A model generated the notes under the pieces. That model searched no databases. It was not told where the DNA came from and worked only from the letters and a program-made list of their open reading frames with translations. From the IMG/VR virus record IMGVR_UViG_3300011008_000003: a DNA stretch of 64,000 bases. One strand, 5' to 3'. The DNA comes from a virus (Duplodnaviria; Heunggongvirae; Uroviricota; Caudoviricetes). The position numbers were made by a program, and so were the translations under genes. Positions 22,747-63,659 of the stretch are shown piece by piece. Positions within the stretch are counted from its first letter, which is position 1; every line of letters starts with the position of its first letter.

Positions 22747-22788
22747 ATATAGACAATATAGCAAAAAGAGCTGAATATGTCAACCCTT
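22747..22788 (-). repeat. 42 bp promoter module, inverted copy at 28170-28211
   Basis: 38/42 identical; TTGACA-17-TATATT. Confidence 0.85.
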
Positions 22789-23123
22789 TACAAATCCTTT
22801 AAAATATGTTTCGCTTCCCAGTTATTGAAAATAACAATCGCTTTTTCCGGATTCTTAATTGCACGTTTCATAACTGACAACGGTATATTATTGAATTGAT
22901 ATGAAAGTAATGTCTTTGTCGCACCGATTCCTATAACTTTACCGTCAACGATTTTACGTAAGTCATAAACGTTCCTAAAGCGATTCATATATACTTGTTC
23001 AAGAGAAAACCGGATATAATATCCGTCTTTACAATATTCGCCCGGAAATGTTCTGCGTTCAGTAGGTTTATAACCTAAACCTTCTACATACTTACGCATC
23101 ATTCTAAAATAATCTTGTTCCAT
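22788..23123 (-). CDS. C-terminal tag family protein
   Basis: Ends WEAKHILKDL. Confidence 0.75.
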   Translation of the reverse strand: MEQDYFRMMRKYVEGLGYKPTERRTFPGEYCKDGYYIRFSLEQVYMNRFRNVYDLRKIVDGKVIGIGATKTLLSYQFNNIPLSVMKRAIKNPEKAIVIFNNWEAKHILKDL

Positions 23124-23124
23124 A

Positions 23125-23571
23125 TTAACCCAACTTATCCAATGCCGCTTCGGTGTATGCCAAATTGATATACGGAGTAACCTTGTCCTTGAATTCTGTC
23201 AAGCTCAAACCGTTACTGTCAATAACGATATTCTTATAATGGAAAGAAAACGCTTCTGTCTTATAAAGGGTGACACGTTCACATGACTCATGAGTATCAG
23301 GAATTGAATATCCCATCATATCGCCATAAATCGGTTCTTCCGTGATTTTCCATCCCATTAGTTCCAAAGTCTTGTAGCCAAGACCATCTGTCCAAATCTC
23401 AAGCGGAACATCAGCGATCAACAAATCAAACTCTTCTGTACGACGATCCGACCGATACTTACGATAAACAAGTCGCGGGACATTGACTAAATCAGCCGGA
23501 CTTGCATATCGCATTCCGATAAACGCTTTCGTAAACGGATTAGTATACAAGCTGGTCTGGGAAGTACTCAT
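23125..23571 (-). CDS. C-terminal tag family protein
   Basis: Ends YTEAALDKLG. Confidence 0.75.
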   Translation of the reverse strand: MSTSQTSLYTNPFTKAFIGMRYASPADLVNVPRLVYRKYRSDRRTEEFDLLIADVPLEIWTDGLGYKTLELMGWKITEEPIYGDMMGYSIPDTHESCERVTLYKTEAFSFHYKNIVIDSNGLSLTEFKDKVTPYINLAYTEAALDKLG

Positions 23572-23773
23572 TCTGCTTCATCTCCACATGGAAATCTGTA
23601 TCGAGGCCGTTTTCCTTGAGAAATTCGATAGCCTGCTTACGCTTGTTCCAAGCCATAGCATCCATGAAATCTTCGGTGGAAATAAAGCCAGGATGGTTTT
23701 CGATGTAATTCCGGAAATAGTAATGGACATAGTTATTAGTCCTATTCGATTCCAGAACATAGAATGTAATCAT
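23540..23773 (-). CDS. hypothetical protein
   Basis: GGAG RBS. Confidence 0.65.
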   Translation of the reverse strand: MITFYVLESNRTNNYVHYYFRNYIENHPGFISTEDFMDAMAWNKRKQAIEFLKENGLDTDFHVEMKQNEYFPDQLVY

Positions 23774-23793
23774 TTCAACTCCGTTTTTATGGT

Positions 23794-24042
23794 TTACTTC
23801 AATCCTAAAATTTTATTTGCTATTCGATTCAATAATGTCATATGTGTATAGTGTACATATGTTAAAGATTCTGTAGCGGACGACCATTTGCTTTCTCCGA
23901 AAATATATACTTCTCGAATATATTTGGAACCGAAAATATTTCGTCCTTCAAATTTAACATGCGTTGGAATTTTATACATATAATTTCCAGGAAGAGCTAT
24001 TTCGCCTTCACGCATCACTTCTTTTTCATAAGACCATAACAT
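23794..24042 (-). CDS. hypothetical protein (tag-like end)
   Basis: Ends IANKILGLK; -10 box 7 nt upstream. Confidence 0.65.
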   Translation of the reverse strand: MLWSYEKEVMREGEIALPGNYMYKIPTHVKFEGRNIFGSKYIREVYIFGESKWSSATESLTYVHYTHMTLLNRIANKILGLK

Positions 24043-24080
24043 ATTATTGAATATAGTAAAAGCGAATAAGTTCGTAAACC

Positions 24081-24422
24081 CTATTCCAAAGAATTTAATG
24101 CATTAATTTCCCAATAATATCGGATATACGGCCAAATAACATTAATAAAATCCGGCAAGTCCATATCTTCATTTGTAATTTTCTTATTCTCAAATACAAA
24201 TTCTATATAATCATAATCGTACAGTGCAAGCGGATTATTATCAACATAGAAATCCCCAGAATATGAACCATATATCATACAATATGTTTCTTGACCATTA
24301 TATGTTATATTAGGTTCTTTCGTACCTGGATAGAAAATCTTAAATCTTCTTTCTGTTATTTGAATACCAACCATACGGTCGTATTTATCGTTTGCTGATA
24401 CTCTTATAAACGGTTTATCCAT
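24081..24422 (-). CDS. C-terminal tag family protein
   Basis: Ends WEINALNSLE. Confidence 0.75.
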   Translation of the reverse strand: MDKPFIRVSANDKYDRMVGIQITERRFKIFYPGTKEPNITYNGQETYCMIYGSYSGDFYVDNNPLALYDYDYIEFVFENKKITNEDMDLPDFINVIWPYIRYYWEINALNSLE

Positions 24423-24424
24423 AA

Positions 24425-24754
24425 CTAGTCCAATGTTTCCAAAGATTTCGATAAAAGATAATTCTCGACATTCATTTCAAGTTTCGTTAAATCCCCGCAC
24501 AGCCATTCGATAACTTTCTTCAGCGGAATATCCCTATACTTATAACTTTCGAAACCTTTATCGCTAGAAATCAAAGATATTCTATAAGATCTTGGCGTAT
24601 TAAAGGCGTCAAGTTCATTATATACGCGGTTCACAAAAACCGCATTATGATACATTTCCACAACGAAATCACCTTTTATGAAATTCCAGTCGCCTTCTTG
24701 TACAAATCCGGCTTTTTCCAACTGAGCCCTATGTAACCTGTCAACGAAGTTCAT
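24425..24754 (-). CDS. C-terminal tag family protein
   Basis: Ends LLSKSLETLD. Confidence 0.75.
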   Translation of the reverse strand: MNFVDRLHRAQLEKAGFVQEGDWNFIKGDFVVEMYHNAVFVNRVYNELDAFNTPRSYRISLISSDKGFESYKYRDIPLKKVIEWLCGDLTKLEMNVENYLLSKSLETLD

Positions 24755-25089
24755 TATTCAAGCTCCCCTAATGACTTTTCAATTTCCATGTTATTAAGCC
24801 GCATGAGAATCTTACTCGAGTCGCCGCAAGCTATACTAATTAACGTATCTACAGGAACTGAATTATACCTGTAAGGCTCCGCCAGATTAGTAGTCGCAAT
24901 CCGTTGCTCATTGCAATCCAAAAATATATTTTCGTTCCAGATAATTACCTTAAATCCGGATTTATCGTTTTTCTCATAGGTAGCCGAATATTTAGCTGTC
25001 TGAGTAAATCCGTGATTTGATATGAAATTTTCAATAAGTCTTTGTTTTGCGTAATCTACCATAGGCTTAACGTTTATCAGGTGGTGCAT
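24754..25089 (-). CDS. C-terminal tag family protein
   Basis: Ends EIEKSLGELE; ATG 6 nt after TATATT. Confidence 0.7.
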   Translation of the reverse strand: MHHLINVKPMVDYAKQRLIENFISNHGFTQTAKYSATYEKNDKSGFKVIIWNENIFLDCNEQRIATTNLAEPYRYNSVPVDTLISIACGDSSKILMRLNNMEIEKSLGELE

Positions 25090-25173
25090 ATCTGTAATAT
25101 AGTAAAACTTAAACATCATGTAAACCCATAAAAACGGGTTGACATATATAATGGCTTTTGCTATATTATAATC

Positions 25174-25488
25174 ATGGTTCAAATACACAACGGAAAAATC
25201 AAGAATTTAAACATTAACCTTAAAACCGCGACTAAGGTCGTAGGAGATGTTTGCGTAGATGAAGATGTACTCGTACTTCGTTTTACTGTACCAAACCCAG
25301 ATTATGTAAGTAAGTCTGGTTTCTGGTCGAATATCGGACCTACTACACATGAAAACGTATATCTTGAACCGCATGATATTATCATAATCGGTGGAAACCG
25401 ATTTGAATGTACAGAAATTTCAGATTACGAAGCTACCCGCCTCGCAAAGAACATTACAACCCTTATCGACCTGGAGAAATTGGCATGA
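25174..25488 (+). CDS. C-terminal tag family protein
   Basis: Ends TLIDLEKLA; TTGACA-17-TATATT upstream. Confidence 0.75.
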   Translation: MVQIHNGKIKNLNINLKTATKVVGDVCVDEDVLVLRFTVPNPDYVSKSGFWSNIGPTTHENVYLEPHDIIIIGGNRFECTEISDYEATRLAKNITTLIDLEKLA

Positions 25489-25781
25489 GTCAAAACGTTA
25501 TGAAATTCAGCGGTGCAAACTGGTATGTGGTCAAGTCCTTTACCAAGATTCTGGGTATTAGCAAAACCAACGGAATCTATCTTGACAATAATGCCAGGGT
25601 TATCGAATCCAATCTATGCTCACTTACAAGAGATACAGCAGACTCTTCAAACGGCTTTACTTTATATTCCGATACCGACTATATTGAATATAACGGTAAG
25701 CGTTATACAAACAAAAATTTAGACAAGCTTAAGATGATCGTAGAAAACGAAAAGAATGAAGAGGCAATAGATGCACTCTGA
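25485..25781 (+). CDS. C-terminal tag family protein
   Basis: YNGKRY...EEAIDAL. Confidence 0.75.
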   Translation: MSQNVMKFSGANWYVVKSFTKILGISKTNGIYLDNNARVIESNLCSLTRDTADSSNGFTLYSDTDYIEYNGKRYTNKNLDKLKMIVENEKNEEAIDAL

Positions 25782-26091
25782 ACATAAACCTACATGCGTC
25801 GTTGTCGGGGGAGCATTCACTATGCATCATCTCGACATAGACCGACTTGATGAATTTACGGTAGATACAAAAAACCAATGTATCAAATTTCCATTCATTG
25901 ATTATAACTGGCATAAAGGTTTTTCAAAAGAAAGTTTTTTCTATATCTACCAAATTGATCAATATTCATTTTATATTAATGACCAATATGTACATTTTTT
26001 CTGTGAAAAAAATTTAGAAAAAGTATATTGGCATATATTCAACGAACTGCACGATAAAGTTGTCAAATATCAGCTTTCCGCATTGGAGTAA
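25771..26091 (+). CDS. C-terminal tag family protein
   Basis: Ends KYQLSALE. Confidence 0.7.
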   Translation: MHSEHKPTCVVVGGAFTMHHLDIDRLDEFTVDTKNQCIKFPFIDYNWHKGFSKESFFYIYQIDQYSFYINDQYVHFFCEKNLEKVYWHIFNELHDKVVKYQLSALE

Positions 26092-26093
26092 CT

Positions 26094-26474
26094 ATGTACG
26101 ACGAATTATATGACAGCCTTTTAGCCGGTAAGTTTTTACGTCCTGTAGGCGAAGAAATAAAGCCTGAATGGCCTGTTATGGCATATACTACAAGTTATGG
26201 CGAAGATGAATTTTTCATAATCAAATCAATCGACGATGCTTCTCACAATGACAGCCTGTATTTAATCGGAATTGATTTTCGTCGCGTAAAAGATGGAAAA
26301 TTCGATTATGATATGAGTGACTATAATGTCCTTGATTATAGATCATGTCGAGGCCTGCATTATCTTGGAAAATATATCCGTTGCCGAGGTAAGTCTATGG
26401 AGGAATTCATTAACGAAATTACTCCGCTGGTCGCAAATTTCAATAACGAAATGGCTATCGAAAAATTGGATTAA
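26094..26474 (+). CDS. C-terminal tag family protein
   Basis: Ends EMAIEKLD. Confidence 0.75.
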   Translation: MYDELYDSLLAGKFLRPVGEEIKPEWPVMAYTTSYGEDEFFIIKSIDDASHNDSLYLIGIDFRRVKDGKFDYDMSDYNVLDYRSCRGLHYLGKYIRCRGKSMEEFINEITPLVANFNNEMAIEKLD

Positions 26475-26475: not shown

Positions 26476-26823
26476 ATGAAAGTTCATCCTTGTGCAATAT
26501 TCATGAAAGAGCTTATGCCTACAGCTTATAATTCAATATATGAGCTGTGTAAGCATAATCCGATGCGTTGCGTTATTATCAATCAGATTTCGAAAGAAAG
26601 AACCTATATCGACGGGCATTTTGTAGACATAGATTATCATAATGATACTCTCGAAATTAATTATATCTGTGTTGATTTGGTTGCAGGCCTGTGCGGAATT
26701 CCGACTATGGACAGTCATTGTTATGTAATCTATAACGGTAAATCGTATCAAGACATGATGCAATTATACAAAGACTTTAAGAACAACGAACTTTCAAAAG
26801 AAATCGATGAGGCATTAGGATGA
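26476..26823 (+). CDS. C-terminal tag family protein
   Basis: YNGKSY...KEIDEALG. Confidence 0.75.
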   Translation: MKVHPCAIFMKELMPTAYNSIYELCKHNPMRCVIINQISKERTYIDGHFVDIDYHNDTLEINYICVDLVAGLCGIPTMDSHCYVIYNGKSYQDMMQLYKDFKNNELSKEIDEALG

Positions 26824-27188
26824 ATATACAACCGATAGCACTTACAAGAGATTTTTGGTCTTTAAAAACTTTTAAAACCGCTGAATATCATACCTTTGAT
26901 GAGTTTTTACATTTTTTCGATGAAAATCCTATTAAATGTCTGTTCTTAAGCTATACACATACTGGCTGTACAAAAACTTATATACATGGTAATTTTATAG
27001 GTATTGAATACGAAGAAAAAGACGATGAACTTCTAATCTATTATGTTACAGATGAAGAACTTCCGCATGGTATGGTTCAAATGTGTTCAGTAGCCTATAA
27101 CGGTAAAACTTATATAGACCCATTGGAATTATATCATGTTTATCAAAATGATAAACTCGAACAAGAAATCGACGAGGCTTTAGAATGA
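26820..27188 (+). CDS. C-terminal tag family protein
   Basis: YNGKTY...QEIDEALE. Confidence 0.75.
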   Translation: MNIQPIALTRDFWSLKTFKTAEYHTFDEFLHFFDENPIKCLFLSYTHTGCTKTYIHGNFIGIEYEEKDDELLIYYVTDEELPHGMVQMCSVAYNGKTYIDPLELYHVYQNDKLEQEIDEALE

Positions 27189-27502
27189 TTAAGCCATATG
27201 TCGAATGTATAAATGTCTGGACCGGAAAAAACGATATTTTTATATTGTCGCTAAATTCGGCGTCGGTTGACTATATGAAAAAATATCGTAAACTTGTCGG
27301 ATTCTTTAAGACAGACCCGTTGCATGCCGATTTAAAAATGCTTACTCCCTTATTCGGTTCCGTTTTTCATTGCGGAAATATCGTAATAAATTACGATACA
27401 AATAATAACAACTGGACGATTCGAAAAGAAGATGACTTTTGTAATCTAGTCGCGACATACGTAGAACAAGCAAGATTATCAAACGAGATAGATAACCTAT
27501 GA
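27185..27502 (+). CDS. C-terminal tag family protein
   Basis: Ends SNEIDNL. Confidence 0.7.
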   Translation: MIKPYVECINVWTGKNDIFILSLNSASVDYMKKYRKLVGFFKTDPLHADLKMLTPLFGSVFHCGNIVINYDTNNNNWTIRKEDDFCNLVATYVEQARLSNEIDNL

Positions 27503-27864
27503 TGCATGTACTTGTGAAAAAACTTACCAATGAAGATATATTACTAAGAATGAAATTAAATAAATTTTCATTCTGTAATCTTGGTTTTGTATATTTGCCA
27601 TTCTATGCCGGTAGAATCCTTAAAAATTACCAGCCAGCCGTTACATATCATAATGTTTCATTTATCGACCTAGAACAAGATAAACTATATCCGCATATCT
27701 GGAATGTATATTATTATAATCCGGATAAATTTAAAGGCGTTGTAGTCTGGGAAGATAACGTTTCGTATGTTACTTTCAGAGATAAAAAATATATGGATAT
27801 GACGCAATTACATTTTGCCCTTGAAAATTTCAAAATGGAGAGAATGCTCAGTGTGCTCGACTAA
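27499..27864 (+). CDS. C-terminal tag family protein
   Basis: FRDKKY...ERMLSVLD. Confidence 0.75.
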   Translation: MMHVLVKKLTNEDILLRMKLNKFSFCNLGFVYLPFYAGRILKNYQPAVTYHNVSFIDLEQDKLYPHIWNVYYYNPDKFKGVVVWEDNVSYVTFRDKKYMDMTQLHFALENFKMERMLSVLD

Positions 27865-27874: not shown

Positions 27875-28171
27875 ATGCAATTCGTCAATGACCCAAATAT
27901 CGAGATCGATAAATATCAGATTATTCATGTAGGCGTCGGCTCTCATGAATATTTCCGGTATACCGACTTGCGTTTTTGCGGTCTGACATATAAAGACGAT
28001 ACATTCTATATTTTCTGGGATTCTCCGCATGACTATTACAGCGATGCGTTTACCTGGGACGATGAGTCATTTATCGTATATCAACACACGATATATACAG
28101 ATTTAAAACAGCTTGCTTTAAAACTCACTAATGACGCAAACGAACGCGATATTGATGAAGCGCTTGGATAA
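27875..28171 (+). CDS. C-terminal tag family protein
   Basis: Ends RDIDEALG; start uncertain (GTG 27851 possible). Confidence 0.7.
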   Translation: MQFVNDPNIEIDKYQIIHVGVGSHEYFRYTDLRFCGLTYKDDTFYIFWDSPHDYYSDAFTWDDESFIVYQHTIYTDLKQLALKLTNDANERDIDEALG

Positions 28172-28209
28172 GGGTTGACACGTTCAGCCCTTTTTGCTAT
28201 ATTGTCAAT

Positions 28210-28575
28210 ATGACTGATGCTGAATTTTTAAAACTGCCGCATATTGCCATATGCGTTTATAATGATTCGGACCATGATTTCTTTTACGATTATTTCCTGC
28301 TATCGCCTGTTGAAGAACCGGTTTTATATGATAAAATTCATAAGTTAAATGTCGTCGGTTCTTATGTAATGGACCGCTCTAATAACCAATGTAAGCTGGA
28401 ATTTCCTGAGCTTAATTATTCTATGAATTTTTACGACTCAGACAGCTTTGAATTCATCGACAAGGATTTTAGAATTAAATTTGACAATCCTCTTAAGTTT
28501 AACGAATTGGCACAGAAGCTTGTCATGCACCTGAAAAATGAAATAACCAAAAAGGCAATTAACGATTTGGAGTAA
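28210..28575 (+). CDS. C-terminal tag family protein
   Basis: Ends KKAINDLE; leaderless. Confidence 0.75.
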   Translation: MTDAEFLKLPHIAICVYNDSDHDFFYDYFLLSPVEEPVLYDKIHKLNVVGSYVMDRSNNQCKLEFPELNYSMNFYDSDSFEFIDKDFRIKFDNPLKFNELAQKLVMHLKNEITKKAINDLE

Positions 28576-28577: not shown

Positions 28578-28970
28578 ATGAGTTGTTATCGTCAAATTGA
28601 TTTACGTAAATGCTGTTATTTTAAGTTCACCACATACGAGGATGGAACTCAGTATTTCGTTCTCAGACCCGGTACTTTAGTAGAGCATGAAGGCGACGAA
28701 CACGGAATGTCTGTTTGTGGCGCATTTGGAGTCTATGATAGTTATTCTATAGCATTTACTGTACCTAAAACATTAGATATTTGCCATACATTTTATTATA
28801 GCCAAAAATGGGAATTCCACGACGGTTCGAATTATTTTAAAGTCGAAAATTCTGAAACTTCTCATAATAGTCGTGGTGAAATCTACCATCGATTTATTCA
28901 GAATATCGGCAAAATTAATATGTATCTCGAAAACAAATATATGAAAGAAGCAATTGACGACTTAGCATAA
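28578..28970 (+). CDS. C-terminal tag family protein
   Basis: Ends KEAIDDLA. Confidence 0.75.
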   Translation: MSCYRQIDLRKCCYFKFTTYEDGTQYFVLRPGTLVEHEGDEHGMSVCGAFGVYDSYSIAFTVPKTLDICHTFYYSQKWEFHDGSNYFKVENSETSHNSRGEIYHRFIQNIGKINMYLENKYMKEAIDDLA

Positions 28971-29326
28971 TGACAATACAAGAAAGCCCTATACAGATTC
29001 GTTACTATACTCCCGGTGTCGATTTCGCTCGATACATTATTCCGAATATTCACGATGCTTCAGCTACTCCTTGGTTTACTGACAAGATGATAATCGTAAA
29101 CGGTATATACGGACATGAGAATTTCAACCAGGAAGATTTCTATGACGACAGCAATATAAACATTCGACTGTTGCCGACTTATAAGATTCAAGTCTATTAT
29201 AACGATACATGGTTTGAATATAATCCGTATAAGGATTCGTATGAAAAATTCCAAGACTGCTTCAATTTTATCTTATCCTGCTATGAACATTGCATGACGA
29301 TAAACACTATTGACGAACTGGAATAG
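28970..29326 (+). CDS. C-terminal tag family protein
   Basis: Ends INTIDELE. Confidence 0.75.
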   Translation: MTIQESPIQIRYYTPGVDFARYIIPNIHDASATPWFTDKMIIVNGIYGHENFNQEDFYDDSNINIRLLPTYKIQVYYNDTWFEYNPYKDSYEKFQDCFNFILSCYEHCMTINTIDELE

Positions 29327-29344: not shown

Positions 29345-29815
29345 ATGAAGATTTCTCACGTTGAAAAAACCTATCATGATATCAAGACTCCTTTCGAAAT
29401 CGCAGAAGGAATAAAGAAAGATCGTTTCAGAAACGACTTCGGATATTATGAAGATACTTCCAAACATACGGTCGACTATATCAAGACGTTATCTCGAATC
29501 GTAGAATCCGCTCTTCTCTGCATACCTATGCCTTTTATCGGTGGAATCCAAAACTGTGATGGTAGTATCGAATTTACCAGAAATTGTATTGTTCCTGGTG
29601 CTCTCGTAGCGTTTATGGAAAACAAGTTTCCTCTTGTCGGCATGAAAGTTTTAACCGACGCAGAAGGTCTTTTCTATAACGACCTTATGGGGATTTATCG
29701 TAACCGTATCGACGACTGCAGGCTCGATATTCATTATGTGTTACGTAACTCCAATTCCGGTATTGTTCAGGATATGTATTTCAACAGCCTTGTCGGGAAT
29801 TTTAGCTGTGATTAG
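29345..29815 (+). CDS. DUF262 (GmrSD/ParB-like) domain fragment
   Basis: SRIVES.LL.IPMP...F.EN.F.L.G...L...G..Y.DL; DGQQR absent. Confidence 0.55.
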   Translation: MKISHVEKTYHDIKTPFEIAEGIKKDRFRNDFGYYEDTSKHTVDYIKTLSRIVESALLCIPMPFIGGIQNCDGSIEFTRNCIVPGALVAFMENKFPLVGMKVLTDAEGLFYNDLMGIYRNRIDDCRLDIHYVLRNSNSGIVQDMYFNSLVGNFSCD

Positions 29816-30149
29816 AATACAATATACATCGATTGAAAATCCATTATTGAAAGATATACCGGTACATGTATATCAATCATATCCGAATAAGCTTGATGGC
29901 GAATATCAAGACTATGGCCTTGCAGATATACATTACACAAGGAAAACTACGCCGGAAGGTGTATCTTATGATTTCATCAGAATTTTTATTAGTGCAAAAT
30001 TAACCGGTGATATTCCGCTGCATCTATGGAATAACAAATCATATATTGAATATGAAGGTAAGAAATATAGAACTGAGCAAGACCTATTAAAAATGCTTAT
30101 GATTATCGACAACTTAAGAGCGTTGCGAGCAATTAACCGACTTGATTAG
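29808..30149 (+). CDS. C-terminal tag family protein
   Basis: YEGKKY...RAINRLD; GTG start. Confidence 0.7.
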   Translation: MIRIQYTSIENPLLKDIPVHVYQSYPNKLDGEYQDYGLADIHYTRKTTPEGVSYDFIRIFISAKLTGDIPLHLWNNKSYIEYEGKKYRTEQDLLKMLMIIDNLRALRAINRLD

Positions 30150-30158: not shown

Positions 30159-30449
30159 ATGAAAAATAATAATACATTAGTCTTTACATGTGGAAATCCG
30201 CCAGAGCATAGGCCAGTAGATTTCGAAGAGATTCATCGTATCTATACATTGACCGATTGTTATCATCTCAAGTTAACAAACTGCTATATGGAATGGAATC
30301 CCATCAGTCATGCCAAATGCGAATATTTTTACATGCAGCCGAATGACTATATTATCTACAAGAAAAAACGATATACGTACGACGACATGCCAAAACTTAT
30401 AATGTTACTCGAAAACGAAAATACCATGAAGGTAATAGAGCGTTTATGA
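30159..30449 (+). CDS. C-terminal tag family protein
   Basis: YKKKRY...MKVIERL. Confidence 0.75.
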   Translation: MKNNNTLVFTCGNPPEHRPVDFEEIHRIYTLTDCYHLKLTNCYMEWNPISHAKCEYFYMQPNDYIIYKKKRYTYDDMPKLIMLLENENTMKVIERL

Positions 30450-30739
30450 AAAATCATGTAGTTTACGGTGCTGGCCATGGTTATACTCGGGCCGATTTCG
30501 ATGAAATCGTACTTATACGGTATGATGAAACAATAAGACCAGAATATTCTGTTCAATTTAAAAATATTAAATTTGAATGCGATGAAAATACTTATGCGTT
30601 TTGGACTGCCTATTTATGCAATATTACTGACTGCATAACCTATAAAGGCAAATTTTACAGTTTCTTCGAAATGCCAAATCTCAGTATGCTCATCGAACAG
30701 GAAAAAACCAAAATAGCCATCGACAACCTGGAGGGATAA
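30446..30739 (+). CDS. C-terminal tag family protein
   Basis: YKGKFY...IAIDNLEG. Confidence 0.75.
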   Translation: MKNHVVYGAGHGYTRADFDEIVLIRYDETIRPEYSVQFKNIKFECDENTYAFWTAYLCNITDCITYKGKFYSFFEMPNLSMLIEQEKTKIAIDNLEG

Positions 30740-31125
30740 TGACAGATAGAGAACACGAACATTGGAAGGATATTCAAAGCAGTAGTCATAAGGAAAAATT
30801 GGAATATCTATTAAGCCTGACCAAACCCGGCAAGAACTATTTTATTACCCCTCATTATCATACGTCTCCCATTAAAGAATTTATAGATATTACCGAACTT
30901 GATTTAGAAAGACATGCCGTACAGTTTAAGTATATCCACGAAGTTTTCAACGATAAATGGGACGGGCTTAGGTATACTACCGATTACGAGTTTATTATCT
31001 GGAACGGGAAAATGTACAGGGGATTTATCGTAACCAACGTATGTATAGACGACCCAGAAGAATTCAAACGGCTTGCATTCGATTTTCACAAATACCAGAT
31101 AGAAAAGTCTTTGGCGGTTCTATAA
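30739..31125 (+). CDS. C-terminal tag family protein
   Basis: WNGKMY...EKSLAVL. Confidence 0.75.
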   Translation: MTDREHEHWKDIQSSSHKEKLEYLLSLTKPGKNYFITPHYHTSPIKEFIDITELDLERHAVQFKYIHEVFNDKWDGLRYTTDYEFIIWNGKMYRGFIVTNVCIDDPEEFKRLAFDFHKYQIEKSLAVL

Positions 31126-31621: not shown

Positions 31622-32491
31622 TTAAGCGGGCATGGCTGAGGTTTCTTCGGGATTCAACTTCGGCAATCCGACTATTTCCCTATACAGGTTGGATTTTCTG
31701 GCGGCCGCGTTGAGCCTTCTGATGGCCTGTGTCTTATACTGTCGGATTCGTTCGCCGGACCGGCCGTACATTTCGCCGATTTCCTTATATGAGTAAACTC
31801 TGTCGCCTATTCCGTACGCCTTCGAGAGGATTTCCTTGTCTCGGCCTTCTACGAGTTCTATGAACGTATTGACGTGGGATTTATATTCTTCCTGTTCCTT
31901 GGTTTTCTGTAGGTCCTGTCCCGGGATGATGTCGGCGAGCGTCAAATCCTGTCCGTCCTGGAAATCCGACCTGACCGGCATGTCCATGGAGTGCATATTG
32001 AGTGCCGTCATGGCGGCGCTGATATTTTCGAATTCTTTTCTGCTGGTACAGAGTTCTTCGATTGACGTGCCGGTTTCCTTGGACTGTTTTAGGAGTCTTT
32101 TGAGCCGGAGTCTTTCGTTCTGGGGAACATGGATAAGGTCATCGTGGTTGAAGATATATGAGTTGATTGACTGTCGGATCCACCATACGGCATAGGAAAT
32201 GAACTTGTTGCCTGTATCGGGCGAGAAGGAATCGATAGCCCTCATGAGGCCTGTGACTCCGATATTGATAAGTTCGCCCCTTGTGGAGTTATTGGCTGAG
32301 TACTTGTTGGCGACCGATATGACGAATGGAATATGGTTGTCGGCTATCCTTTTCTTGGCTTCTTTCTTTATGGTCATTGAAATTTTCGGATTCTTGATGA
32401 TTTTAAAGTATGCCAATTCGGTTTCTTCTGGCATACGTTTCCTATTGGCCAAGTCCGCCAAAAAGTTCTTATAGCTGCGCTCCATATACAA
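31622..32491 (-). CDS. sigma70-family (RpoD/RpoS-like) RNA polymerase sigma factor
   Basis: FVISVANKY, G..GLMRAIDSF, KFISYAVWWIRQ, region 4 EIGE...ERIRQ. Confidence 0.92.
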   Translation of the reverse strand: MYMERSYKNFLADLANRKRMPEETELAYFKIIKNPKISMTIKKEAKKRIADNHIPFVISVANKYSANNSTRGELINIGVTGLMRAIDSFSPDTGNKFISYAVWWIRQSINSYIFNHDDLIHVPQNERLRLKRLLKQSKETGTSIEELCTSRKEFENISAAMTALNMHSMDMPVRSDFQDGQDLTLADIIPGQDLQKTKEQEEYKSHVNTFIELVEGRDKEILSKAYGIGDRVYSYKEIGEMYGRSGERIRQYKTQAIRRLNAAARKSNLYREIVGLPKLNPEETSAMPA

Positions 32492-43849: not shown

Positions 43850-43864
43850 TTCTATATTAAGACT

Positions 43865-44131: not shown

Positions 44132-44146
44132 TTCTATATTAAGTAT

Positions 44147-44455: not shown

Positions 44456-44470
44456 TTCTATATTAAGAAT

Positions 44471-45009: not shown

Positions 45010-45024
45010 TTCTATATTAAGCAT

Positions 45025-45288: not shown

Positions 45289-45303
45289 TTCTATATTATA
45301 AGC

Positions 45304-45881: not shown

Positions 45882-45899
45882 TAATTCTATATTATAGTC

Positions 45900-51446: not shown

Positions 51447-51724
51447 TGACAATATCAACGAAAAGCGGCATCTTTGGCGACTGGTATGACTATGAAGTAA
51501 TACTGCCGTCCAACTTTATTATCTTTAAAGACCATTTTGGTTATGAGGGATTCAATATTGCGGTGAAAGCCGATGACGGATATAACTATGCGTTACGTAT
51601 CATCCAGGCAAATCTGATGCAGGTAAAATATAAAGACCAAACTTATGACATGAGGAAACCGAAAGAATATATGACGCTGAAGAGCATCCTTGAAGCCGAT
51701 ATTGTCCTGGCAAGTCTGGACTAA
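51446..51724 (+). CDS. C-terminal tag family protein
   Basis: YKDQTY...IVLASLD. Confidence 0.75.
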   Translation: MTISTKSGIFGDWYDYEVILPSNFIIFKDHFGYEGFNIAVKADDGYNYALRIIQANLMQVKYKDQTYDMRKPKEYMTLKSILEADIVLASLD

Positions 51725-52512: not shown

Positions 52513-53142
52513 ATGATAAATTCAAGTTTAACGCTCGATGAAGCATTCCGAATTCACAAGAAACAGCTGGATCACCTTGATGCGGCTCTGGCAAAGATTA
52601 AGGAATTTCCGTTAAGCCAGTATCTGCACGTAGGTTTCGACTCAGGGCTCGCCAAGGCCACCACGTTCGTCTATAACCTTGAATACTGTTTGCCGTTCAA
52701 TTTGAACGATACCAGATTCTACGGTTATTCGAAGGATTCCAAGGTCAACATCGACGTGCCGACGAGTTGGGTTAAGGATCACCTGTTCTGCAAGCATCCG
52801 GTGATAACGATGGCATTTAAGCTCACATACCGTTCCGATAAGGATCAGTGGAGCATTAAGTGTTCGCACGTCTATGCGACGACAACCTGCAAAGACAAAT
52901 ATAACGACTATTCCGTTGCCGTTAATCATGAATATTCGACGGTCGCTGAAGCAAACCGAGTGATTGGCTGGGGTGGCGACGCGAGAAATAAGAGTGCTGT
53001 GAACAGGAAATCCGACGATGTGGGTTTTTATATTAAGCTGTTCCAGATGCTGCTGCCGTTCCTGATGAATGACAATCTTATGGGTGTACGAAGCATTCTG
53101 TCCGACGCAGCGAACACCAAAGCATTAAATTCATTAAGGTAA
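52513..53142 (+). CDS. C-terminal tag family protein (subgroup D)
   Basis: Paralog of previous; ends TKALNSLR. Confidence 0.75.
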   Translation: MINSSLTLDEAFRIHKKQLDHLDAALAKIKEFPLSQYLHVGFDSGLAKATTFVYNLEYCLPFNLNDTRFYGYSKDSKVNIDVPTSWVKDHLFCKHPVITMAFKLTYRSDKDQWSIKCSHVYATTTCKDKYNDYSVAVNHEYSTVAEANRVIGWGGDARNKSAVNRKSDDVGFYIKLFQMLLPFLMNDNLMGVRSILSDAANTKALNSLR

Positions 53143-53193: not shown

Positions 53194-53604
53194 ATGCAAA
53201 TGAAGCGACTGAAAGAATTGCACGCCGATTACCGCGGCGAGGAATGGATAGAGAACAGCATTACCGAAGAGTATAACGATGCTCTGATGTGCGTGGCGAC
53301 CGAAAAGACGGTCAATGAAGTCATGGACATTATGGAAACCCTTATCGAATTCAATAACGGGGAACGTCCGGACGAGGAAGACGACTGGATCGTGTACGAT
53401 CCGGAAAAGTTCAATAAGGTAATCAAAGACGCGAACGCTGTAGTCTTTGCTAAGAGAGATAAGGCGACCATGGAGATTCTGGACGTGCTCGAGGGTGATC
53501 CCGAGGAACCGACGGAAGAGGAAAAGGAACTGGCCGCCTTGGACGTCCTCGACGGTATTGACTCGCCGTTCTACGATCCTAATGCAAAGGACGACGATAA
53601 TTAA
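53194..53604 (+). CDS. highly acidic small protein
   Basis: About 40 D/E in 136 aa. Confidence 0.75.
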   Translation: MQMKRLKELHADYRGEEWIENSITEEYNDALMCVATEKTVNEVMDIMETLIEFNNGERPDEEDDWIVYDPEKFNKVIKDANAVVFAKRDKATMEILDVLEGDPEEPTEEEKELAALDVLDGIDSPFYDPNAKDDDN

Positions 53605-53717: not shown

Positions 53718-54728
53718 ATGGCAAACCAAATGTTCACTCCGATGTCTGATAACGAAGCAGACGCCTTCCTCGACGATCTCTTCGGCACGTCCGAAGCCGT
53801 CGAAACCGAAACCGCACCGGTTGATACCGCTGCAGAACCGACCGTTGAACCGGTTGCTGAAATGCCGACCGAAGCGGAAGCTAAGGCAACCGACGTCGAA
53901 CTTGAAGTGGTCGACGAACTTCCGGAAGTCACTAAGTCTGTGGTTGCCGGCACTCGCCACCTCAGCAAGCCGCGTGTGGTCGTCAACAAGTTCAACGGTA
54001 TTGACGGTCTGAGCGCCGCCGAGAGTAACGAATTCAACTCGTGGCTCGCCGCTCACGGTCTGTGCAAGACCATCGGTGCTTTCGCATCCACTAAGCGTAT
54101 GCGAATCTACCGTAACCTGGGTACCAAGAACGGTAAGCAGCTCCATTCTCGTGACTGCATCTACGTCGTGTCTTCGGACGACTGGCGTAAGAACAAGGAA
54201 GCCGTTTATCGTACCATCCTCCGCCTCTCCAAGAAGCAGATGGATGCGGAAATGGTTGTTAAGGTCGCCGAATACCGTCAGAAGATGAACCAAATCGAGG
54301 AAGATTTGCTTCTCCAGCACGACATCGTGATGAACTGGTACAACGGCAAGTCCGCAACCTTCAAGAAGATCCAGCACAAGATCATGGCACCCGATGTGCT
54401 CGCCATGCTTGACGAAGCTGTCAAGCATAACGACAAGTATAACGTTCAGGATATGTACCTGCAGCGTTTCCGCATGGGTGCCCAGATTGAAGAGCTCGGT
54501 ATCGCCCCTGAGTACGACTGGCGTAACTTCGACGTCATCGTTAAGGGTGGCAAGGTTGTCTGTGCTTACAGTTACCGCGACATGGTTCCGCTGTACTCCG
54601 AAACCTTTAAGACTGGTTTCTTCAACAAGTTCGGTTACAACACCGAAATCGTGGACTCCGAAACCATCGAGAAGGTCAAGGCCATGGGTGCCAAGTACAC
54701 CTGTGCCGAAGCCGAAAAGAAGGCTTAG
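53718..54728 (+). CDS. hypothetical protein, acidic disordered N-terminus, optimised codons
   Basis: Promoter, RBS, terminator at 54742-54780. Confidence 0.85.
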   Translation: MANQMFTPMSDNEADAFLDDLFGTSEAVETETAPVDTAAEPTVEPVAEMPTEAEAKATDVELEVVDELPEVTKSVVAGTRHLSKPRVVVNKFNGIDGLSAAESNEFNSWLAAHGLCKTIGAFASTKRMRIYRNLGTKNGKQLHSRDCIYVVSSDDWRKNKEAVYRTILRLSKKQMDAEMVVKVAEYRQKMNQIEEDLLLQHDIVMNWYNGKSATFKKIQHKIMAPDVLAMLDEAVKHNDKYNVQDMYLQRFRMGAQIEELGIAPEYDWRNFDVIVKGGKVVCAYSYRDMVPLYSETFKTGFFNKFGYNTEIVDSETIEKVKAMGAKYTCAEAEKKA

Positions 54729-56371: not shown

Positions 56372-56707
56372 ATGCTTAAAGAAAAACGTTATAAAATCGA
56401 AATTGACACAGCATCTCCGGCCGTGAGCGTGCTGAAAGACGTCCCGTATCACAGGCTGTGGGAATTCCTGCGGGCGCACCCAGAGTACAAGAAGTACGCG
56501 GATGTTAACTGCAGCCGTCCGATCTATGTGTACAAGAAGTGCAAAGTCGGAACAACAGCATTGTGGAAACTCGTAGATGCACTGACATATTCGATGAGCG
56601 GTTGCCCGACTAACATCCGCCGCGATGCCAAAGACCTTAAGCGTAATTACGGTGTCAACATAGCCACCGACATGTACAAGTATCTGAGCCTGGAAGTTCT
56701 GAAGTAA
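56372..56707 (+). CDS. hypothetical protein with tag-like end
   Basis: Leaderless ATG; ends YLSLEVLK. Confidence 0.7.
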   Translation: MLKEKRYKIEIDTASPAVSVLKDVPYHRLWEFLRAHPEYKKYADVNCSRPIYVYKKCKVGTTALWKLVDALTYSMSGCPTNIRRDAKDLKRNYGVNIATDMYKYLSLEVLK

Positions 56708-60169: not shown

Positions 60170-60562
60170 ATGAAAGAATCTGATATGGAAATCGTTAAGA
60201 ACATGACGGACGCCAAGCTCATCGTCGCAATCCGTGATGCTGTTCCGGACGCCAAGGACACGATGCGTGCCCAGGACATCTGTAACAAGAAGCGTTACGC
60301 CGAAGACCGTTCGATGCTTGCCAACAAGCAGTTGAAGGCGATTACCGACACTTCGAAGTTCTACCGTCGAGCCAAGGCGTTTCTGTTAAAGGAAATCGAC
60401 ATCAAGCTCAACGACACCATCTTCTACAAGTGCAATACCATCAACGCAAAGAACTTCATCAGTTCAATGAAGCAGATGGTCAAAGCCAACCGTGAAACCA
60501 TGGAGGCTCTGGACGCGTTGAATTGCCGCGTTCAGAGGTCAAAGAATACGGTAGCAATATGA
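60170..60562 (+). CDS. hypothetical protein
   Basis: Promoter and GGAGG RBS. Confidence 0.8.
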   Translation: MKESDMEIVKNMTDAKLIVAIRDAVPDAKDTMRAQDICNKKRYAEDRSMLANKQLKAITDTSKFYRRAKAFLLKEIDIKLNDTIFYKCNTINAKNFISSMKQMVKANRETMEALDALNCRVQRSKNTVAI

Positions 60563-61641: not shown

Positions 61642-61747
61642 ACCGTCGAAAAACTTCTAAAATATAACGTTTACGACTTGAGTATAAATTACTATATTTA
61701 AGTCGTTAACGAAACAAACAAACCATCATCAAAAAGGAAAAACCAAT

Positions 61748-62029: not shown

Positions 62030-62090
62030 TCTTTTTCTCCTGATGGGTGGTGGAACGTTCCCTAGTAGGACTTCCGAACGGGAACAGCAC

Positions 62091-62174
62091 GGCCTTGTGG
62101 CGGAATAGGTAGACGCTGCAGACTTAAAATCTGTTGGGAGATTTCCCGTGTCGGTTCGAGTCCGACCTTGGTCA
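62091..62174 (+). tRNA. tRNA-Leu(TAA), mismatched acceptor stem, no encoded CCA
   Basis: TGGCGGAATAGGTAGACGC D-arm, GCAGA-CTTAAAA-TCTGT, long variable arm, GTCGGTTCGAGTCCGAC. Confidence 0.85.
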
Positions 62175-62207
62175 TTTCTGTATTAGCCTCCTTCTTTGGG
62201 TTGAAGG

Positions 62208-62243
62208 GAACCGGTGGATCCGTAAGGGTCTGCCGGTTTTTTA
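62208..62243 (+). terminator. intrinsic terminator
   Basis: ACCGGTGGATCC/GGGTCTGCCGGT-T run. Confidence 0.7.
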
Positions 62244-62294
62244 TTCTTAATTATTTTTATTTACAAGATATTCAGAATTTACTATATTATAGTC

Positions 62295-62597
62295 ATGATG
62301 GAAATGAATAAGAAAATAAAAATTGTCTACAAGGATAGCTTGTCTGGTGAAACCAACGAACGCGAGATAAAGCTCCGGAACATCCTGGACCTTATGAAAC
62401 ATACGGGATTCAGTGAACTATACTTCTGGAACAATTATGTTGGCAGACTGGCCAAGATAATGATCTTCGATGATAAACTGGTTAAATGGTTTGACAAGGA
62501 AGGTGTTGAACATACCGACTACGAGAAGCTGGTAGATACGTTGTCGGTTTACGCCGAACAGACGAAACTAAAAGATGCCCTGGCAAGTCTGAATTAA
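62295..62597 (+). CDS. C-terminal tag family protein
   Basis: Ends KDALASLN; leaderless. Confidence 0.75.
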   Translation: MMEMNKKIKIVYKDSLSGETNEREIKLRNILDLMKHTGFSELYFWNNYVGRLAKIMIFDDKLVKWFDKEGVEHTDYEKLVDTLSVYAEQTKLKDALASLN

Positions 62598-62667
62598 AAC
62601 TCAATTAGATTTTGATTTACAAGACTTTTAGAATTTTCTATATTATAGTCATGCAAGAGAGGTTAAA

Positions 62668-62994
62668 ATGGTAATTCACGGTACTAATAGTGATGACATG
62701 CCGATACTGTTCGATACGACGAAGATCGATGCAACATACTGTTGCCAGAATGATCATGGTTTATGGAAAGTTGTGTTGACCCTTAGTAACGGTCTGGAAT
62801 TCTGGTTGCCGCGATATAACACTATCAAAATCAACGGCGTCAACATTATGCATGAGGGCGATATGGCTAAGTGTAAGAAGATGGCTGAGATTATCAATAC
62901 CATTATCGAACTCGAACGTCAGGACCCTCCGGTAGATATGGACAAGTTCTCGAAACTCGGTAAGGACGAGCCGAAGAGAAAAAAGTCAAAATAA
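62668..62994 (+). CDS. hypothetical protein
   Basis: Promoter and RBS. Confidence 0.7.
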   Translation: MVIHGTNSDDMPILFDTTKIDATYCCQNDHGLWKVVLTLSNGLEFWLPRYNTIKINGVNIMHEGDMAKCKKMAEIINTIIELERQDPPVDMDKFSKLGKDEPKRKKSK

Positions 62995-63050
62995 ATCGTT
63001 TACAACATTTGAATATTTTTCTATATTTAAATCAAACAAAAGAGGTTAAT

Positions 63051-63335
63051 ATGTATCTTACTCGTTCCAAGAATCCCCGCAAGTTCGTCAAGCTCTCCGA
63101 AAAGGAATACTTGGCTGAATGTCAAAAGTCTGTCCGTCCGTCCCCGGATATTCACGTCGACTTGTTCGTGAACGCCAAAGACGAAATCCGTCTGGTGATT
63201 ACGTCGATGAATCCGGAACGTCGCTACACGACCGATGAAGTTCTCCCGGTAACCTGGTATCGCGAAGAGCTCGCCGGCAAGAAGGATCGCATCCGTCACG
63301 CCGTGGCTCACTTCAAGAACCATATCAGGTTCTAG
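63051..63335 (+). CDS. hypothetical protein
   Basis: Promoter and GAGG RBS. Confidence 0.75.
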   Translation: MYLTRSKNPRKFVKLSEKEYLAECQKSVRPSPDIHVDLFVNAKDEIRLVITSMNPERRYTTDEVLPVTWYREELAGKKDRIRHAVAHFKNHIRF

Positions 63336-63338
63336 TCT

Positions 63339-63659
63339 ATGGCTGGTTATCCGATGAGTAACATTACCATGAAGATGGATGAGATTAACAAACATCTTTA
63401 TGATACTTGTTACATGATGGATGCTGTCTGGAGCGACTTCTATGGGATAAATCACAACAAGAATGGAAAGGTTCATATCAGGTTACTGACTGGGCCTGCA
63501 CCCGGATGGTTCGATGCTGTCACGTGGACAATAGACATCGACGACATCACCGCAGGGAGACTCGACCTGAAACTGCAGGAAATAGTCAAATTCGGCGATA
63601 ACTGGAAACAGCGTCTGATAGGACTCGACACGGAATATGCGATAGAAAACTTGCAATAA
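63339..63659 (+). CDS. C-terminal tag family protein
   Basis: Ends EYAIENLQ. Confidence 0.75.
   Translation: MAGYPMSNITMKMDEINKHLYDTCYMMDAVWSDFYGINHNKNGKVHIRLLTGPAPGWFDAVTWTIDIDDITAGRLDLKLQEIVKFGDNWKQRLIGLDTEYAIENLQ

Follow-up and report, generated by a model that had tools for sequence, protein, structure and literature searches.

Approximately 45 small genes in the window (the whole 64-kb stretch of DNA that was analysed, from an uncultured giant phage related to T4) constitute a single fast-changing family, the members of which are proteins of about 80 to 220 amino acids that share a tail helix. The family occupies 25% of the window. The tail is an 18-residue helix, K-h-x-x-h-h-[EN]-[NQ]-h-x-T-x-x-A-[IL]-[ED]-x-L, and no matches to the family were found in Pfam, PHROG, PDB or cultured phages. 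The best explanation is that it represents a lineage-specific, greatly expanded superfamily of small proteins in an uncultured jumbo phage of the T4 superfamily. The existence of the family, its motif, its confinement to one clade, the turnover of its genes and the predicted folds are documented here. Genes are referred to below by their first coordinate.

Tails were scored with a 16-column matrix anchored from the C terminus on the last Leu, with candidates scored leave-one-out, and 197 noncandidate ORFs of at least 60 amino acids from all six frames served as the control (maximum, 5.2 bits). Thirty-three of 46 candidates exceeded 5.2 bits, i.e., they scored above every control ORF; the 99.9th percentile of shuffled candidates was 6.8 bits. 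The preliminary description had listed 43 ORFs with a common C-terminal pattern. All 43 were found where it had placed them, and the enrichment of the pattern over other ORFs was borne out, but membership held only in part: 31 of the 43 are among the 33 high-scoring candidates, a further 5 (26476, 26820, 27875, 22788 and 52513) are backed by other evidence, and 7 (23794, 24081, 25771, 28970, 42187, 44471 and 56372) are weak or doubtful. The first three of the five end in EIDEAL-G/E, a one-residue shift, and have whole-protein family HMM E values of 1e-23 to 1e-25. Beyond that list, the tail was found in 14328, 14918 and 17844, as well as in five proteins in which 9 to 80 residues follow the motif.

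The motif is linked to protein ends. In the ORFs of the window and its relatives, matches of at least 10 bits numbered 28 at 203,552 internal positions, versus dozens among approximately 8,400 ORF-end positions, and 83 of 99 tail bearers have 0 or 1 residue beyond the anchor Leu. Because the anchor uses all six Leu codons, the constraint acts on the protein. A DNA or ribosome-binding-site artefact as the source of the motif was rejected on the basis of this codon usage and of the variable downstream context. Both the family and the motif are genuine features of the proteins.

Members lie in arrays on both strands (bits in parentheses are leave-one-out tail-matrix scores; homologues were sought in G002, a related 411-kb jumbo phage of the T4 superfamily). 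On the minus strand, type B proteins (helix, strands, two helices) are encoded at 24425-24754 (10.3 bits; phmmer cluster 1) and 24754-25089 (17.8 bits; modelled, with 53 database relatives, none of them named), and a type B relative at 22788-23123 (2.5 bits; 37% homologue in G002) gave an hhalign value of 92% over 106 columns with this group. The same strand carries a member at 23125-23514, the start of which is possibly 23571 (12.8 bits), a weak member at 24081-24422 (2.7 bits), in which F-I-x-x-I-x-P-Y lies ahead of the tail as in 23125 and 26094, and a doubtful member at 23794-24042 (-8.5 bits), the end of which has only I-x-x-L-K. The minus and plus arrays diverge at 25095-25168 from back-to-back promoter-like motifs, CTATATTA, with exact copies at 25095 (minus) and 25161 (plus), 5 to 6 nucleotides upstream of ATG.

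The plus array includes members at 25174-25488 (12.6 bits), 26094-26474 (11.8 bits; 15.9 bits with the hairpin-trained matrix described below), 27185-27502 (11.4 bits), 28210-28575 (13.1 bits) and 28578-28970 (14.9 bits; phmmer cluster 0). Hairpin-type members are encoded at 25500-25781 (20.9 bits; family HMM E value, 1e-21), 27499-27864 (13.8 bits; E value, 2.5e-26), 29736-30149 (19.6 bits; start uncertain, overlapping 29345-29815), 30159-30449 (19.9 bits) and 30446-30739 (22.8 bits), and the three hairpin-type members with the shifted tail lie at 26476-26823 (EIDEALG; E value, 1.5e-25; 2.1 bits), 26820-27188 (E value, 4.7e-25) and 27875-28171 (E value, 1.2e-23). Two members are weak, one at 25771-26091 (-5.3 bits), which ends in Q-L-S-A-L-E, and one at 28970-29326 (-4.4 bits), the end of which, T-I-D-E-L-E, fits by eye only. 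The member at 30739-31125 (6.4 bits) is conserved, with a G002 homologue that is 75% identical at a dN/dS of about 0.16.

A second cluster begins on the minus strand with a doubtful member at 42187-42480 (-7.3 bits), in which a tail-like V-E-D-I-L is followed by eight residues, and a member at 42473-42787 (5.3 bits). All genes that follow in this paragraph are on the plus strand. Type A members are encoded at 43282-43566 (9.0 bits; 42% homologue in G002), 43586-43849 (21.0 bits; modelled; 86% homologue), 43865-44131 (9.9 bits), 44147-44455 (14.8 bits; 74% homologue), 44740-45009 (20.2 bits), 45025-45288 (21.9 bits), 51108-51446 (12.4 bits) and 51446-51724 (11.9 bits; HMM E value, 3.8e-18). Among them lie a weak member at 44471-44743 (-3.9 bits), with the hairpin FDGVVY and a degenerate tail, and members at 45304-45603 (9.1 bits), 45600-45881 (13.8 bits; loose hairpin), 45900-46349 (12.0 bits), which has a longer, more helical body and ends in INSLPG, 46378-46785 (7.2 bits; phmmer cluster 9), a paralogue of 45900, and 46822-47127 (16.1 bits). 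At the cassette junctions from 43845 to 45894, CTATATTA stands 5 to 6 nucleotides upstream of each ATG, with exact motifs at 43852, 44134, 44458, 45012, 45291 and 45887. Farther along are a 218-residue tail-bearing protein at 51788-52444 (11.1 bits; homologue in G002) and its 209-residue paralogue at 52513-53142 (5.0 bits; phmmer cluster 3), a doubtful member at 56372-56707 (-3.3 bits), a conserved member at 62295-62597 (12.0 bits), the G002 homologue of which is identical over the last 18 residues, and a member at 63339-63659 (8.2 bits; 51% homologue in G002).

The three additional tail bearers, all on the minus strand, are a member at 17844-18089 (18.0 bits), beyond the range described earlier, a 207-residue protein at 14918-15541 (16.0 bits; homologue in G002) and its 196-residue paralogue at 14328-14918 (4.2 bits; a BLAST pair). 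The motif is internal at residue 140 of 151 in the member at 21817-22272 (minus; 16.3 bits), where an 11-residue acidic extension follows; at residue 132 of 212 in 41341-41979 (minus; 17.6 bits), where 80 residues follow; at residue 99 of 136 in 53194-53604 (plus; 10.8 bits), which has an acidic C-terminal extension and a G002 homologue in which the motif is also internal; at residue 117 of 130 in 60170-60562 (plus; 10.2 bits), with a 13-residue extension, the G002 homologue stopping at the tail; and at residue 119 of 128 in a possible member at 13945-14331 (minus; 11.6 bits), with a 9-residue extension. A free C terminus is therefore not needed.

Thirty of the 46 members had no BLAST match in G002, which has about 59 tail-bearing ORFs of its own, and none of the 46 matched in a second relative, G001. 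Whole cassettes, gained or lost singly, distinguish close strains: 43865 and 45900 are missing in strain L063, 45025 is missing in both L063 and L064, L064 has another family gene instead of 45304, and 44471 is conserved in both strains. The dN/dS values of conserved homologue pairs are 0.15 to 0.35. The genes are best explained as accessory and fast-changing. The T4 late motif TATAAATA stands ahead of the gp23-type capsid gene in G002 and is concentrated there at 180 to 340 kb, and CTATATTA clusters coincide with the location of the tail family. The family genes are not part of the late structural region and have no late promoter motif; from these motifs, the family is probably expressed outside the late class.

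AlphaFold2 models were obtained for one protein of each type. The type A model (43586-43849; 41 sequences; pLDDT, 93; pTM, 0.82) has six strands followed by a helix at residues 67 to 85, and the type B model (24754-25089; pLDDT, 86) has a helix at residues 13 to 24, five strands and helices at residues 80 to 87 and 91 to 110. The tail occurs on two or more distinct predicted architectures, as the earlier claim of different scaffolds had held. When types A and B were compared by hhalign, only the last 23 columns aligned (P = 0.013), with nothing similar elsewhere. The occurrence of one tail on two topologies with no similarity elsewhere is unexpected from simple divergence of a single fold. In both models the tail helix (pLDDT, about 90 to 97) begins 3 residues past the preceding element, without a linker. 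It is thus modelled as belonging to the predicted fold of each protein, where it would be buried, and not as a linker-borne tag. The whole type A model, including the helix, superposes on PH-like domains (Tfb1 PH, RanBD, EVH1 and PTB), which occupy most of the top 50 structural-match rows; the matches, with Z values of 3.5 to 4.9 and an rmsd of 2.7 to 4 Å over 65 to 75 residues, are weak, and since all are below a Z of 5, "PH-like" denotes an arrangement and not a family assignment. In the PH-like fold, the C-terminal helix caps the sandwich.

We hold, with moderate confidence, that these genes encode a diversified family of small, non-late proteins that probably act as binders and share a structural closing helix. 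Each member would be a compact alpha/beta domain closed by the conserved 18-residue C-terminal helix, and in most the domain would be a beta meander that includes a YxGKxY hairpin. The preliminary description gave the hairpin to most members, which overstates it: a loose form is present in about half, and only about 16 to 18 have the strict form correctly spaced from the tail. The helix would be integral to the fold, with the hydrophobic stripe of its first half presumably packed against the sheet of the same protein, and the helix end would be locked by the final two turns (T-7, A-4, I/L-3 and L0). Besides the models, the five internal motifs, the similar divergence of tail and body in homologue pairs and a variant tail in G001, LLEEIDD, speak for a helix that belongs to the fold. 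The strands and loops would be free to diverge, which could yield a repertoire of small binders or inhibitors of different, probably host, targets. The genes may be expressed as single cassettes, each with its own near-leaderless CTATATTA promoter-like motif, or by translational coupling.

Most of the family-wide information sits in the invariant patch formed by T-7, A-4, I/L-3 and L0, whose hydrophobic moment points to 18 degrees, compared to 207 degrees for the stripe of the first half, i.e., approximately opposite. A conserved contact site that faces outward would be expected to look like this too. It is possible, at well below even chances, that the tail helix bears a common patch for docking or oligomerisation. 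The principal form of this idea, as initially proposed, is an adaptor library, in which the patch and its acidic flanks dock all members onto one hub while the variable body captures targets. Consistent with this, the 18-residue signature holds nearly all family-wide information and the bodies are unalignable: most members remained phmmer singletons, and in profile-profile comparisons only the last 20 to 40 columns aligned, which upheld the description of a constant tail on a barely alignable remainder. The tail also occurs on two predicted architectures, the patch points away from the stripe, and there is a precedent in the common hydrophobic-acidic C-terminal motif that docks several T4-family proteins on the gp45 clamp (PMC2988020). 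A detachable docking tail nevertheless fits poorly with a helix that is modelled confidently within a compact domain, with no linker, and with the five tolerated internal motifs. Moreover, the tail is not markedly more conserved between homologues than the body (54% versus 44% identity), indicating similar divergence rates, and no hub candidate emerged; the clamp is not an obvious one, because the polymerase C termini of relatives (..LDEFFY and ..MFEFFS) are unlike the tail. We therefore consider the adaptor library unlikely, though a serious alternative to the closing helix.

The family might instead consist only of the hairpin-type proteins, with type B, 45900/46378, 51788/52513 and 14328/14918 having merely similar amphipathic ends. 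When scored with a second matrix, built from hairpin members alone, these groups come no higher than about the 98th to 99th percentile of background scores (45900, 1.4 bits; 51788, 4.5 bits; 52513, -1.2 bits; type B, 4.7, 2.4 and -1.6 bits), the hhalign P value between types A and B is 0.013, and the earlier reader had chosen the other groups by eye among about 110 genes. This narrower family is improbable, however: 14918 (13.6 bits) and 46378 (7.7 bits) do score with that matrix; five independent groups lie at that percentile, versus one or two expected; and the other groups lie inside or adjoin the arrays and have in common Asn/Gln at -10, Thr/Ile at -7 and an I/L-x-x-L end.

It is decidedly improbable that the patch, by a short contact between helices, holds members together in homo- or hetero-oligomers. 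A coiled-coil-like interface would be compatible with the small residues found at -4 and -7 and with Asn/Gln at -10, the positions 0, -7 and -14 and -3/-4 and -10/-11 are heptad-like with the polar Asn/Gln conserved, and the same arrays may coexpress many members; but the helix is only about 2.5 heptads long, the hydrophobic face of its first half is on the other side, and nothing positive was found in favour of such contacts. A signal read at the C terminus, whether for packaging or ejection, for sorting or as the degron suggested earlier, is very improbable, for although the tail is terminal in the 83 of 99 bearers noted above, its final residue is variable and frequently charged, a further 9 to 80 residues are tolerated after it, its net charge is negative, unlike that of membrane-targeting helices, and the genes are neither in the late structural region nor preceded by the late motif.

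Among known systems, the PH-like superfold (pleckstrin homology, Tfb1/p62 PH, Ran-binding, EVH1 and PTB domains and bacterial PH domains) resembles type A in its small antiparallel beta structure with one C-terminal amphipathic helix and in its extreme sequence divergence, with the helix as the best-kept element. These domains are nonenzymatic binding modules and the commonest entries in the type A match list, but the type A model has six strands and not seven, all Z values are below 5, type B has another topology, and Pfam PH models matched no family member. SspB-type protease adaptors, in which a substrate-binding body carries a C-terminal tethering peptide, follow the logic of a variable binder on a constant tether. 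The SspB tether is a short peptide that ends a long flexible linker, whereas the family models have no linker, and SspB appeared only as a chance-level Foldseek row. Poxvirus ankyrin/PRANC (F-box-like) proteins, the analogy drawn initially, form a multigene family in which the bodies vary and the C-terminal element is constant; there, PRANC is a separate multihelix Skp1-binding module, whereas here a single 18-residue helix lies within a domain of about 90 residues, and no ankyrin repeats or F-box/PRANC matches were found among 47 members. Within the T4 superfamily, gp43, gp55 and gp33 bind the gp45 clamp by a common hydrophobic-acidic C-terminal motif (PMC2988020). The likeness lies in a short hydrophobic and acidic extreme C terminus on otherwise unrelated proteins that share one hub; the clamp motif, however, is aromatic rich and follows an unstructured variable linker, whereas dozens of proteins bear the family tail, a helix that runs on from its domain and lacks an aromatic pair. 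The plastic (hyperplastic) regions of T4-like phages and host-takeover modules like that of SPO1 are arrays of small, nonessential, fast-changing, non-late genes that lie between conserved replication and structural modules and contain many unrelated small genes. Strain-to-strain cassette differences are found among the close strains here as well, but in the window a single set of genes with a common motif accounts for about 25% of 64 kb, and the relative has about 59 such ORFs.

All of the ORFs named in the preliminary description are present in the window, and the C-terminal helix proposed as their common feature was scored with a 16-column matrix anchored on the last Leu with I, L, V, or M three residues upstream, each candidate being scored on a leave-one-out basis. 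The tail score exceeded 5.2 bits, the maximum reached by 197 other ORFs from all six frames, in 33 of the 46 candidates; the 99.9th percentile of shuffled candidates was 6.8 bits. The proposed enrichment over shuffled and noncandidate sequences was thus confirmed. Three low-scoring candidates (26476, 26820, and 27875; such numbers denote gene starts) end in EIDEAL-G/E, which corresponds to a one-residue shift, and are full-length homologues of the group carrying a YxGKxY hairpin (E values of 1e-23 to 1e-25). Most of the 43 members originally proposed were borne out, and 7 stay weak. Matches of at least 10 bits were found at 28 of 203,552 internal positions, compared to dozens in a few thousand end positions. 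When the matrix was trained on hairpin members only, 33 of 84 nonhairpin tail bearers outscored the 99.9th percentile of a background of 2,772 ORFs. A chance origin of the motif is ruled out by the leave-one-out scores, the internal and end counts, and the hairpin-only matrix. The family accounts for 25% of the window.

Across 99 tail-bearing ORFs of the window and of a 411-kb relative (G002), information was near zero upstream of position -17, counted back from the anchor Leu (L0), and peaked at K(-17), h(-16), h(-13/-12), E/N(-11), N/Q(-10), T(-7), A(-4), I/L(-3), E/D(-2), and L(0), where h is hydrophobic. The anchor Leu is specified by all six Leu codons, and the DNA past the stop codon differs between genes (an overlapping ATGA, TAATATG, or a promoter-like box). 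These two observations rule out a DNA-level or ribosome-binding-site artifact, as might have arisen if the L-E/D/G codons supplied the following gene with a GGAG, and they argue that the tail is constrained as protein rather than as part of a ribosome-binding site or promoter. The YxGKxY hairpin, said to precede the tail in most members, is itself present, but its strict form at the right distance was found in only about 16 to 18 of the 46 candidates and its loose form in about half. The claim of a constant tail on barely alignable bodies held up: BLAST and phmmer joined members into small groups only, most being singletons, and profile-profile comparisons between groups aligned the last 20 to 40 columns alone (P values of 1e-3 to 1e-2), the exception being the 22788 group compared with the 24425/24754 group (92%).

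Two unlike layouts were predicted by AlphaFold2, in agreement with the earlier proposal that the tail sits on different scaffolds. The model of 43586-43849 (type A; 41-sequence alignment; pLDDT, 93; pTM, 0.82) consists of six strands and a helix at residues 67 to 85, and that of 24754-25089, from the 22788/24425/24754 group (type B; 14 sequences; pLDDT, 86), consists of a helix, five strands, a short helix, and the tail helix at residues 91 to 110. In both models the tail helix starts 3 residues past the preceding element, without a linker, at a pLDDT of about 90 to 97. Foldseek searches of PDB, BFVD, and ESM Atlas with the type A model returned nothing significant. In an exhaustive VIA-align search, PH-like domains were the commonest entry among the best 50 rows, the whole model superposing weakly with its helix included (Z scores of 3.5 to 4.9). 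The PH-like superfold is a seven-stranded beta sandwich with a C-terminal helix cap, whereas the type A model has six strands and a C-terminal helix, and the curated PH-family sequence model gave one faint match below the cutoff (PH1_SSRP1-like; E value of 0.0067; a single member) in a Pfam scan of 47 members. The likeness would accordingly describe a small sheet structure with a C-terminal helix cap, not family membership. For the type B model, VIA matches were weak (SUD-C, TriTu, the MotA C-terminal domain, HicA, and frataxin; Z scores of 4.3 to 5.1); Foldseek recovered none of these five and nothing significant, and there was no Pfam or PDB sequence match. The HicA/dsRBD-like, frataxin-like, and MotA C-terminal-domain folds are two-layer sandwiches of a helix, an antiparallel sheet, and a helix.

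The tail helix has two faces. Its hydrophobic moment points to 207 degrees in the first half and to 18 degrees in the last eight residues, and the family-wide information is directed to 31 degrees. The stripe formed by positions -16, -13, -9, and -5 is hydrophobic in every subfamily, with variable residue identity; no subfamily departs from L0 or I/L-3, and most retain A-4 and T-7. Such a helix may be a wedge inside its own domain, buried where two portions of that domain meet, and it fits an outward-facing conserved contact equally well.

The window encodes gp46/gp47-type Rad50 and Mre11, thymidylate synthase, a sigma-70-type factor, GroEL, a MoxR-like ATPase, and an amidase, and a search of 50,697 deposited phages gave no near-DNA match to it. 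The Rad50 that it encodes shares about 30% identity with that of T4-like phages and 51 to 59% with Rad50 on IMG/VR contigs 230 to 416 kb long, one of which is G002 (98% complete). G002 has a gp23-type capsid gene with the T4 late motif TATAAATA and a Shine-Dalgarno sequence upstream. The Rad50 similarity and this capsid gene argue that the window derives from an uncultured T4-superfamily jumbo phage. Its composition is mosaic, positions 1-38000 and 42000-64000 differing in closest relative: many left-arm genes are nearer to a 415-kb relative, G001 (8979-9530, 81%; 18080-19021, 68%), and the right arm (48 to 63 kb) is syntenic with G002 at 385 to 401 kb and mostly lacks matches in G001. One right-arm gene of unknown function, 62668-62994 (+) (108 aa), is 91% identical to its G002 counterpart, far above its neighbors and Rad50 (51%). 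This gene, the sigma-70-type factor (31622-32491), and 53718-54728 have counterparts in G002 and none in G001. The family B DNA polymerase of G002 (85625-88910) appears to be divided between overlapping ORFs of 735 and 393 aa, and the latter has the clamp-type motif ..MFEFFS at its end.

Family members are distributed differently from most other window genes, which match one or both of these relatives: 19 of the 46 members matched G002, and none matched G001. About 59 tail-bearing ORFs were found in G002, clustered at 18 to 28, 40 to 41, 342 to 351, and 354 to 407 kb. G001 has only about five related hairpin-plus-helix genes (5773-9481), with a variant ending, LLEEIDD/G, and these look like a small sister group in which Ile replaces the anchor Leu. 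Conserved pairs have dN/dS values of about 0.15 to 0.35. Two close strains, whose flanking genes are 82 to 96% identical, lack 43865, 45025, or 45900 and carry other family genes instead, and 46822 is relocated in the same comparison. The type A profile found 33 representatives among 1.84 billion, all of 78 to 120 aa and nearly all matching through their own C terminus, and the type B profile found 53 unnamed metagenome clusters. Two long matches in the representative search were rejected as relatives, being Ig-like or portal proteins with repeats; a search for extended, fused versions of the type A domain came up empty, a result of little weight. No match was found in cultured phages, including by tblastn with a member; searches of Pfam, PHROGs, and PDB sequences found no family; an ESM Atlas feature search with a 218-aa member returned only an unnamed viral cluster; and the literature searched yielded no relevant account of such a family.

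Family cassettes are bounded by the motif CTATATTA, which is present in 24 copies in the window compared to 3.8 expected (25095-62645; e.g., 25161, 29332, 43852, 44134, 48021, 49083, 50100, 51095, 56359, and 62282). Many small genes have it 5 to 6 nt ahead of their ATG, often with TT plus a purine on its upstream side. In G002, it clusters with the family at 20 to 40 and 340 to 411 kb and is almost absent from 240 to 340 kb, where TATAAATA clusters. Judged from sequence, CTATATTA looks like a separate, nonlate promoter class yielding near-leaderless mRNAs, and expression of the family would be nonlate. The motif GGGTTGACA, a -35-like TTGACA box, lies past the stop codons of 22788 (-), 27875 (+), and 63339 (+) (22700-22790, 28172-28200, and 63660-63680), which suggests that sigma-70-type promoters may be used besides the CTATATTA class. 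The ORFs at 29345-29815 (+) and 29736-30149 (+) share 80 nt in different reading frames, which would be accounted for by a later start of the family gene (TTG 29790 or GTG 29808) or by a joining frameshift.

The most economical account, to which we give about an even chance, is a clade-specific family of small nonlate proteins, expanding cassette by cassette, whose conserved closing helix and variable surfaces make up a repertoire of binders for different targets. The conserved helix would close the fold while the varying surfaces would bind those targets. The preliminary description had instead proposed an adaptor library. Given the present data, an outward-facing patch at the helix end (T-7, A-4, I/L-3, L0, and acidic flanks) would in that case plug 45 to 100 different small proteins per genome into one partner. 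We consider this rather unlikely, and it keeps what standing it has because the conserved patch faces the opposite way and the tail occurs on two architectures. The detachable docking tail that went with it was not supported: there is no linker in the models, the motif is internal in five proteins, and tail and body differ little in identity between window and G002 homologues (54% versus 44%). The variant ending in G001 and the unlike C termini of the relatives' polymerases also speak against it. An adaptor library, if real, would be of a size that has not been described for any bacterial virus, and the helix as a common docking site would be a new phage way of organizing effectors.

That the outlying groups merely resemble the hairpin family is improbable. 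With the hairpin-only matrix, type B, 45900, and the 51788 pair reached about the 98th to 99th percentile of background and no higher, so that these groups can be regarded as suggested, but not proven, members. When the type A profile was deepened to 41 sequences and the type B profile to 62, alignment between the two was confined to the last 23 columns (P = 0.013). Association of members tail to tail appears quite improbable; a two-copy complex prediction for a type A protein, run without controls, scored 0.00 and was counted neither for nor against binding.

The tail ends 0 or 1 residue past the anchor Leu in 83 of the 99 tail-bearing ORFs, the following residue being E, D, P, K, A, or none, and 9 to 80 more residues follow the motif in five proteins (41341, 21817, 53194, 60170, and 13945). 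A C-terminal signal of the degron or PDZ-ligand type, with fixed last residues and a free C terminus, does not fit the variable last residue and these extensions. A signal function of the tail is highly improbable. The motif of 41341-41979 (-) is at residue 132 of 212 (17.6 bits), followed by an 80-residue extension; this gene and 40736-41338 (-), in which a tail-like I-N-R-A-L-E-I-L lies about 16 residues from the end, are two 200-aa genes that adjoin GroEL and have no Pfam match. In the 136-aa product of 53194-53604 (+), a tail-like motif at residue 99 is followed by another near residue 115, and the C-terminal extension is strongly acidic; its G002 homologue retains the internal motif. Marked acidity, which would point to DNA mimicry, was not seen in the family (median pI of 5.9 versus 6.7 for other genes).

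The family has no counterpart in Pfam, PHROGs, PDB, or cultured phages, and no confident structural neighbor was found for its predicted folds. Viral gene sets that expand and turn over rapidly usually mark the host interface (takeover and counterdefense), and the putative binder repertoire is therefore a large and so far unexploited source of candidate proteins aimed at the host. It would also illustrate how, in nature, a single small scaffold or a single common helix bears very many different surfaces.

Among known systems, poxvirus ANK/PRANC adaptors join N-terminal ankyrin repeats to a C-terminal F-box-like PRANC, whereas the 47 members gave no Pfam match to ankyrin, F-box, or PRANC at an E value of 0.01 or better; the hub of those adaptors is a cullin ligase, and bacteria lack the SCF ligase. 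In the T4 family, a hydrophobic-acidic C terminus binds the gp45 clamp (PMC2988020). That motif sits on an unstructured variable linker, unlike the confidently predicted tail helix, which directly follows the domain in both models, and the polymerases of the relatives end in ..SALDEFFY (G001) and ..TMFEFFS (G002, split polB), whereas the tail consensus, A-[IL]-[ED]-x-L, lacks the aromatic pair. The sliding clamp was rejected as a hub on this dissimilarity, and searching the relatives for the gp45 C-terminal domain gave no match. The family does share the setting of T4-superfamily accessory genes: T4-type core genes are present in the lineage (Rad50/Mre11 in the window and the gp23-type capsid in G002), the small genes form arrays behind putative nonlate promoters, and close strains differ by the gain, loss, or replacement of cassettes.
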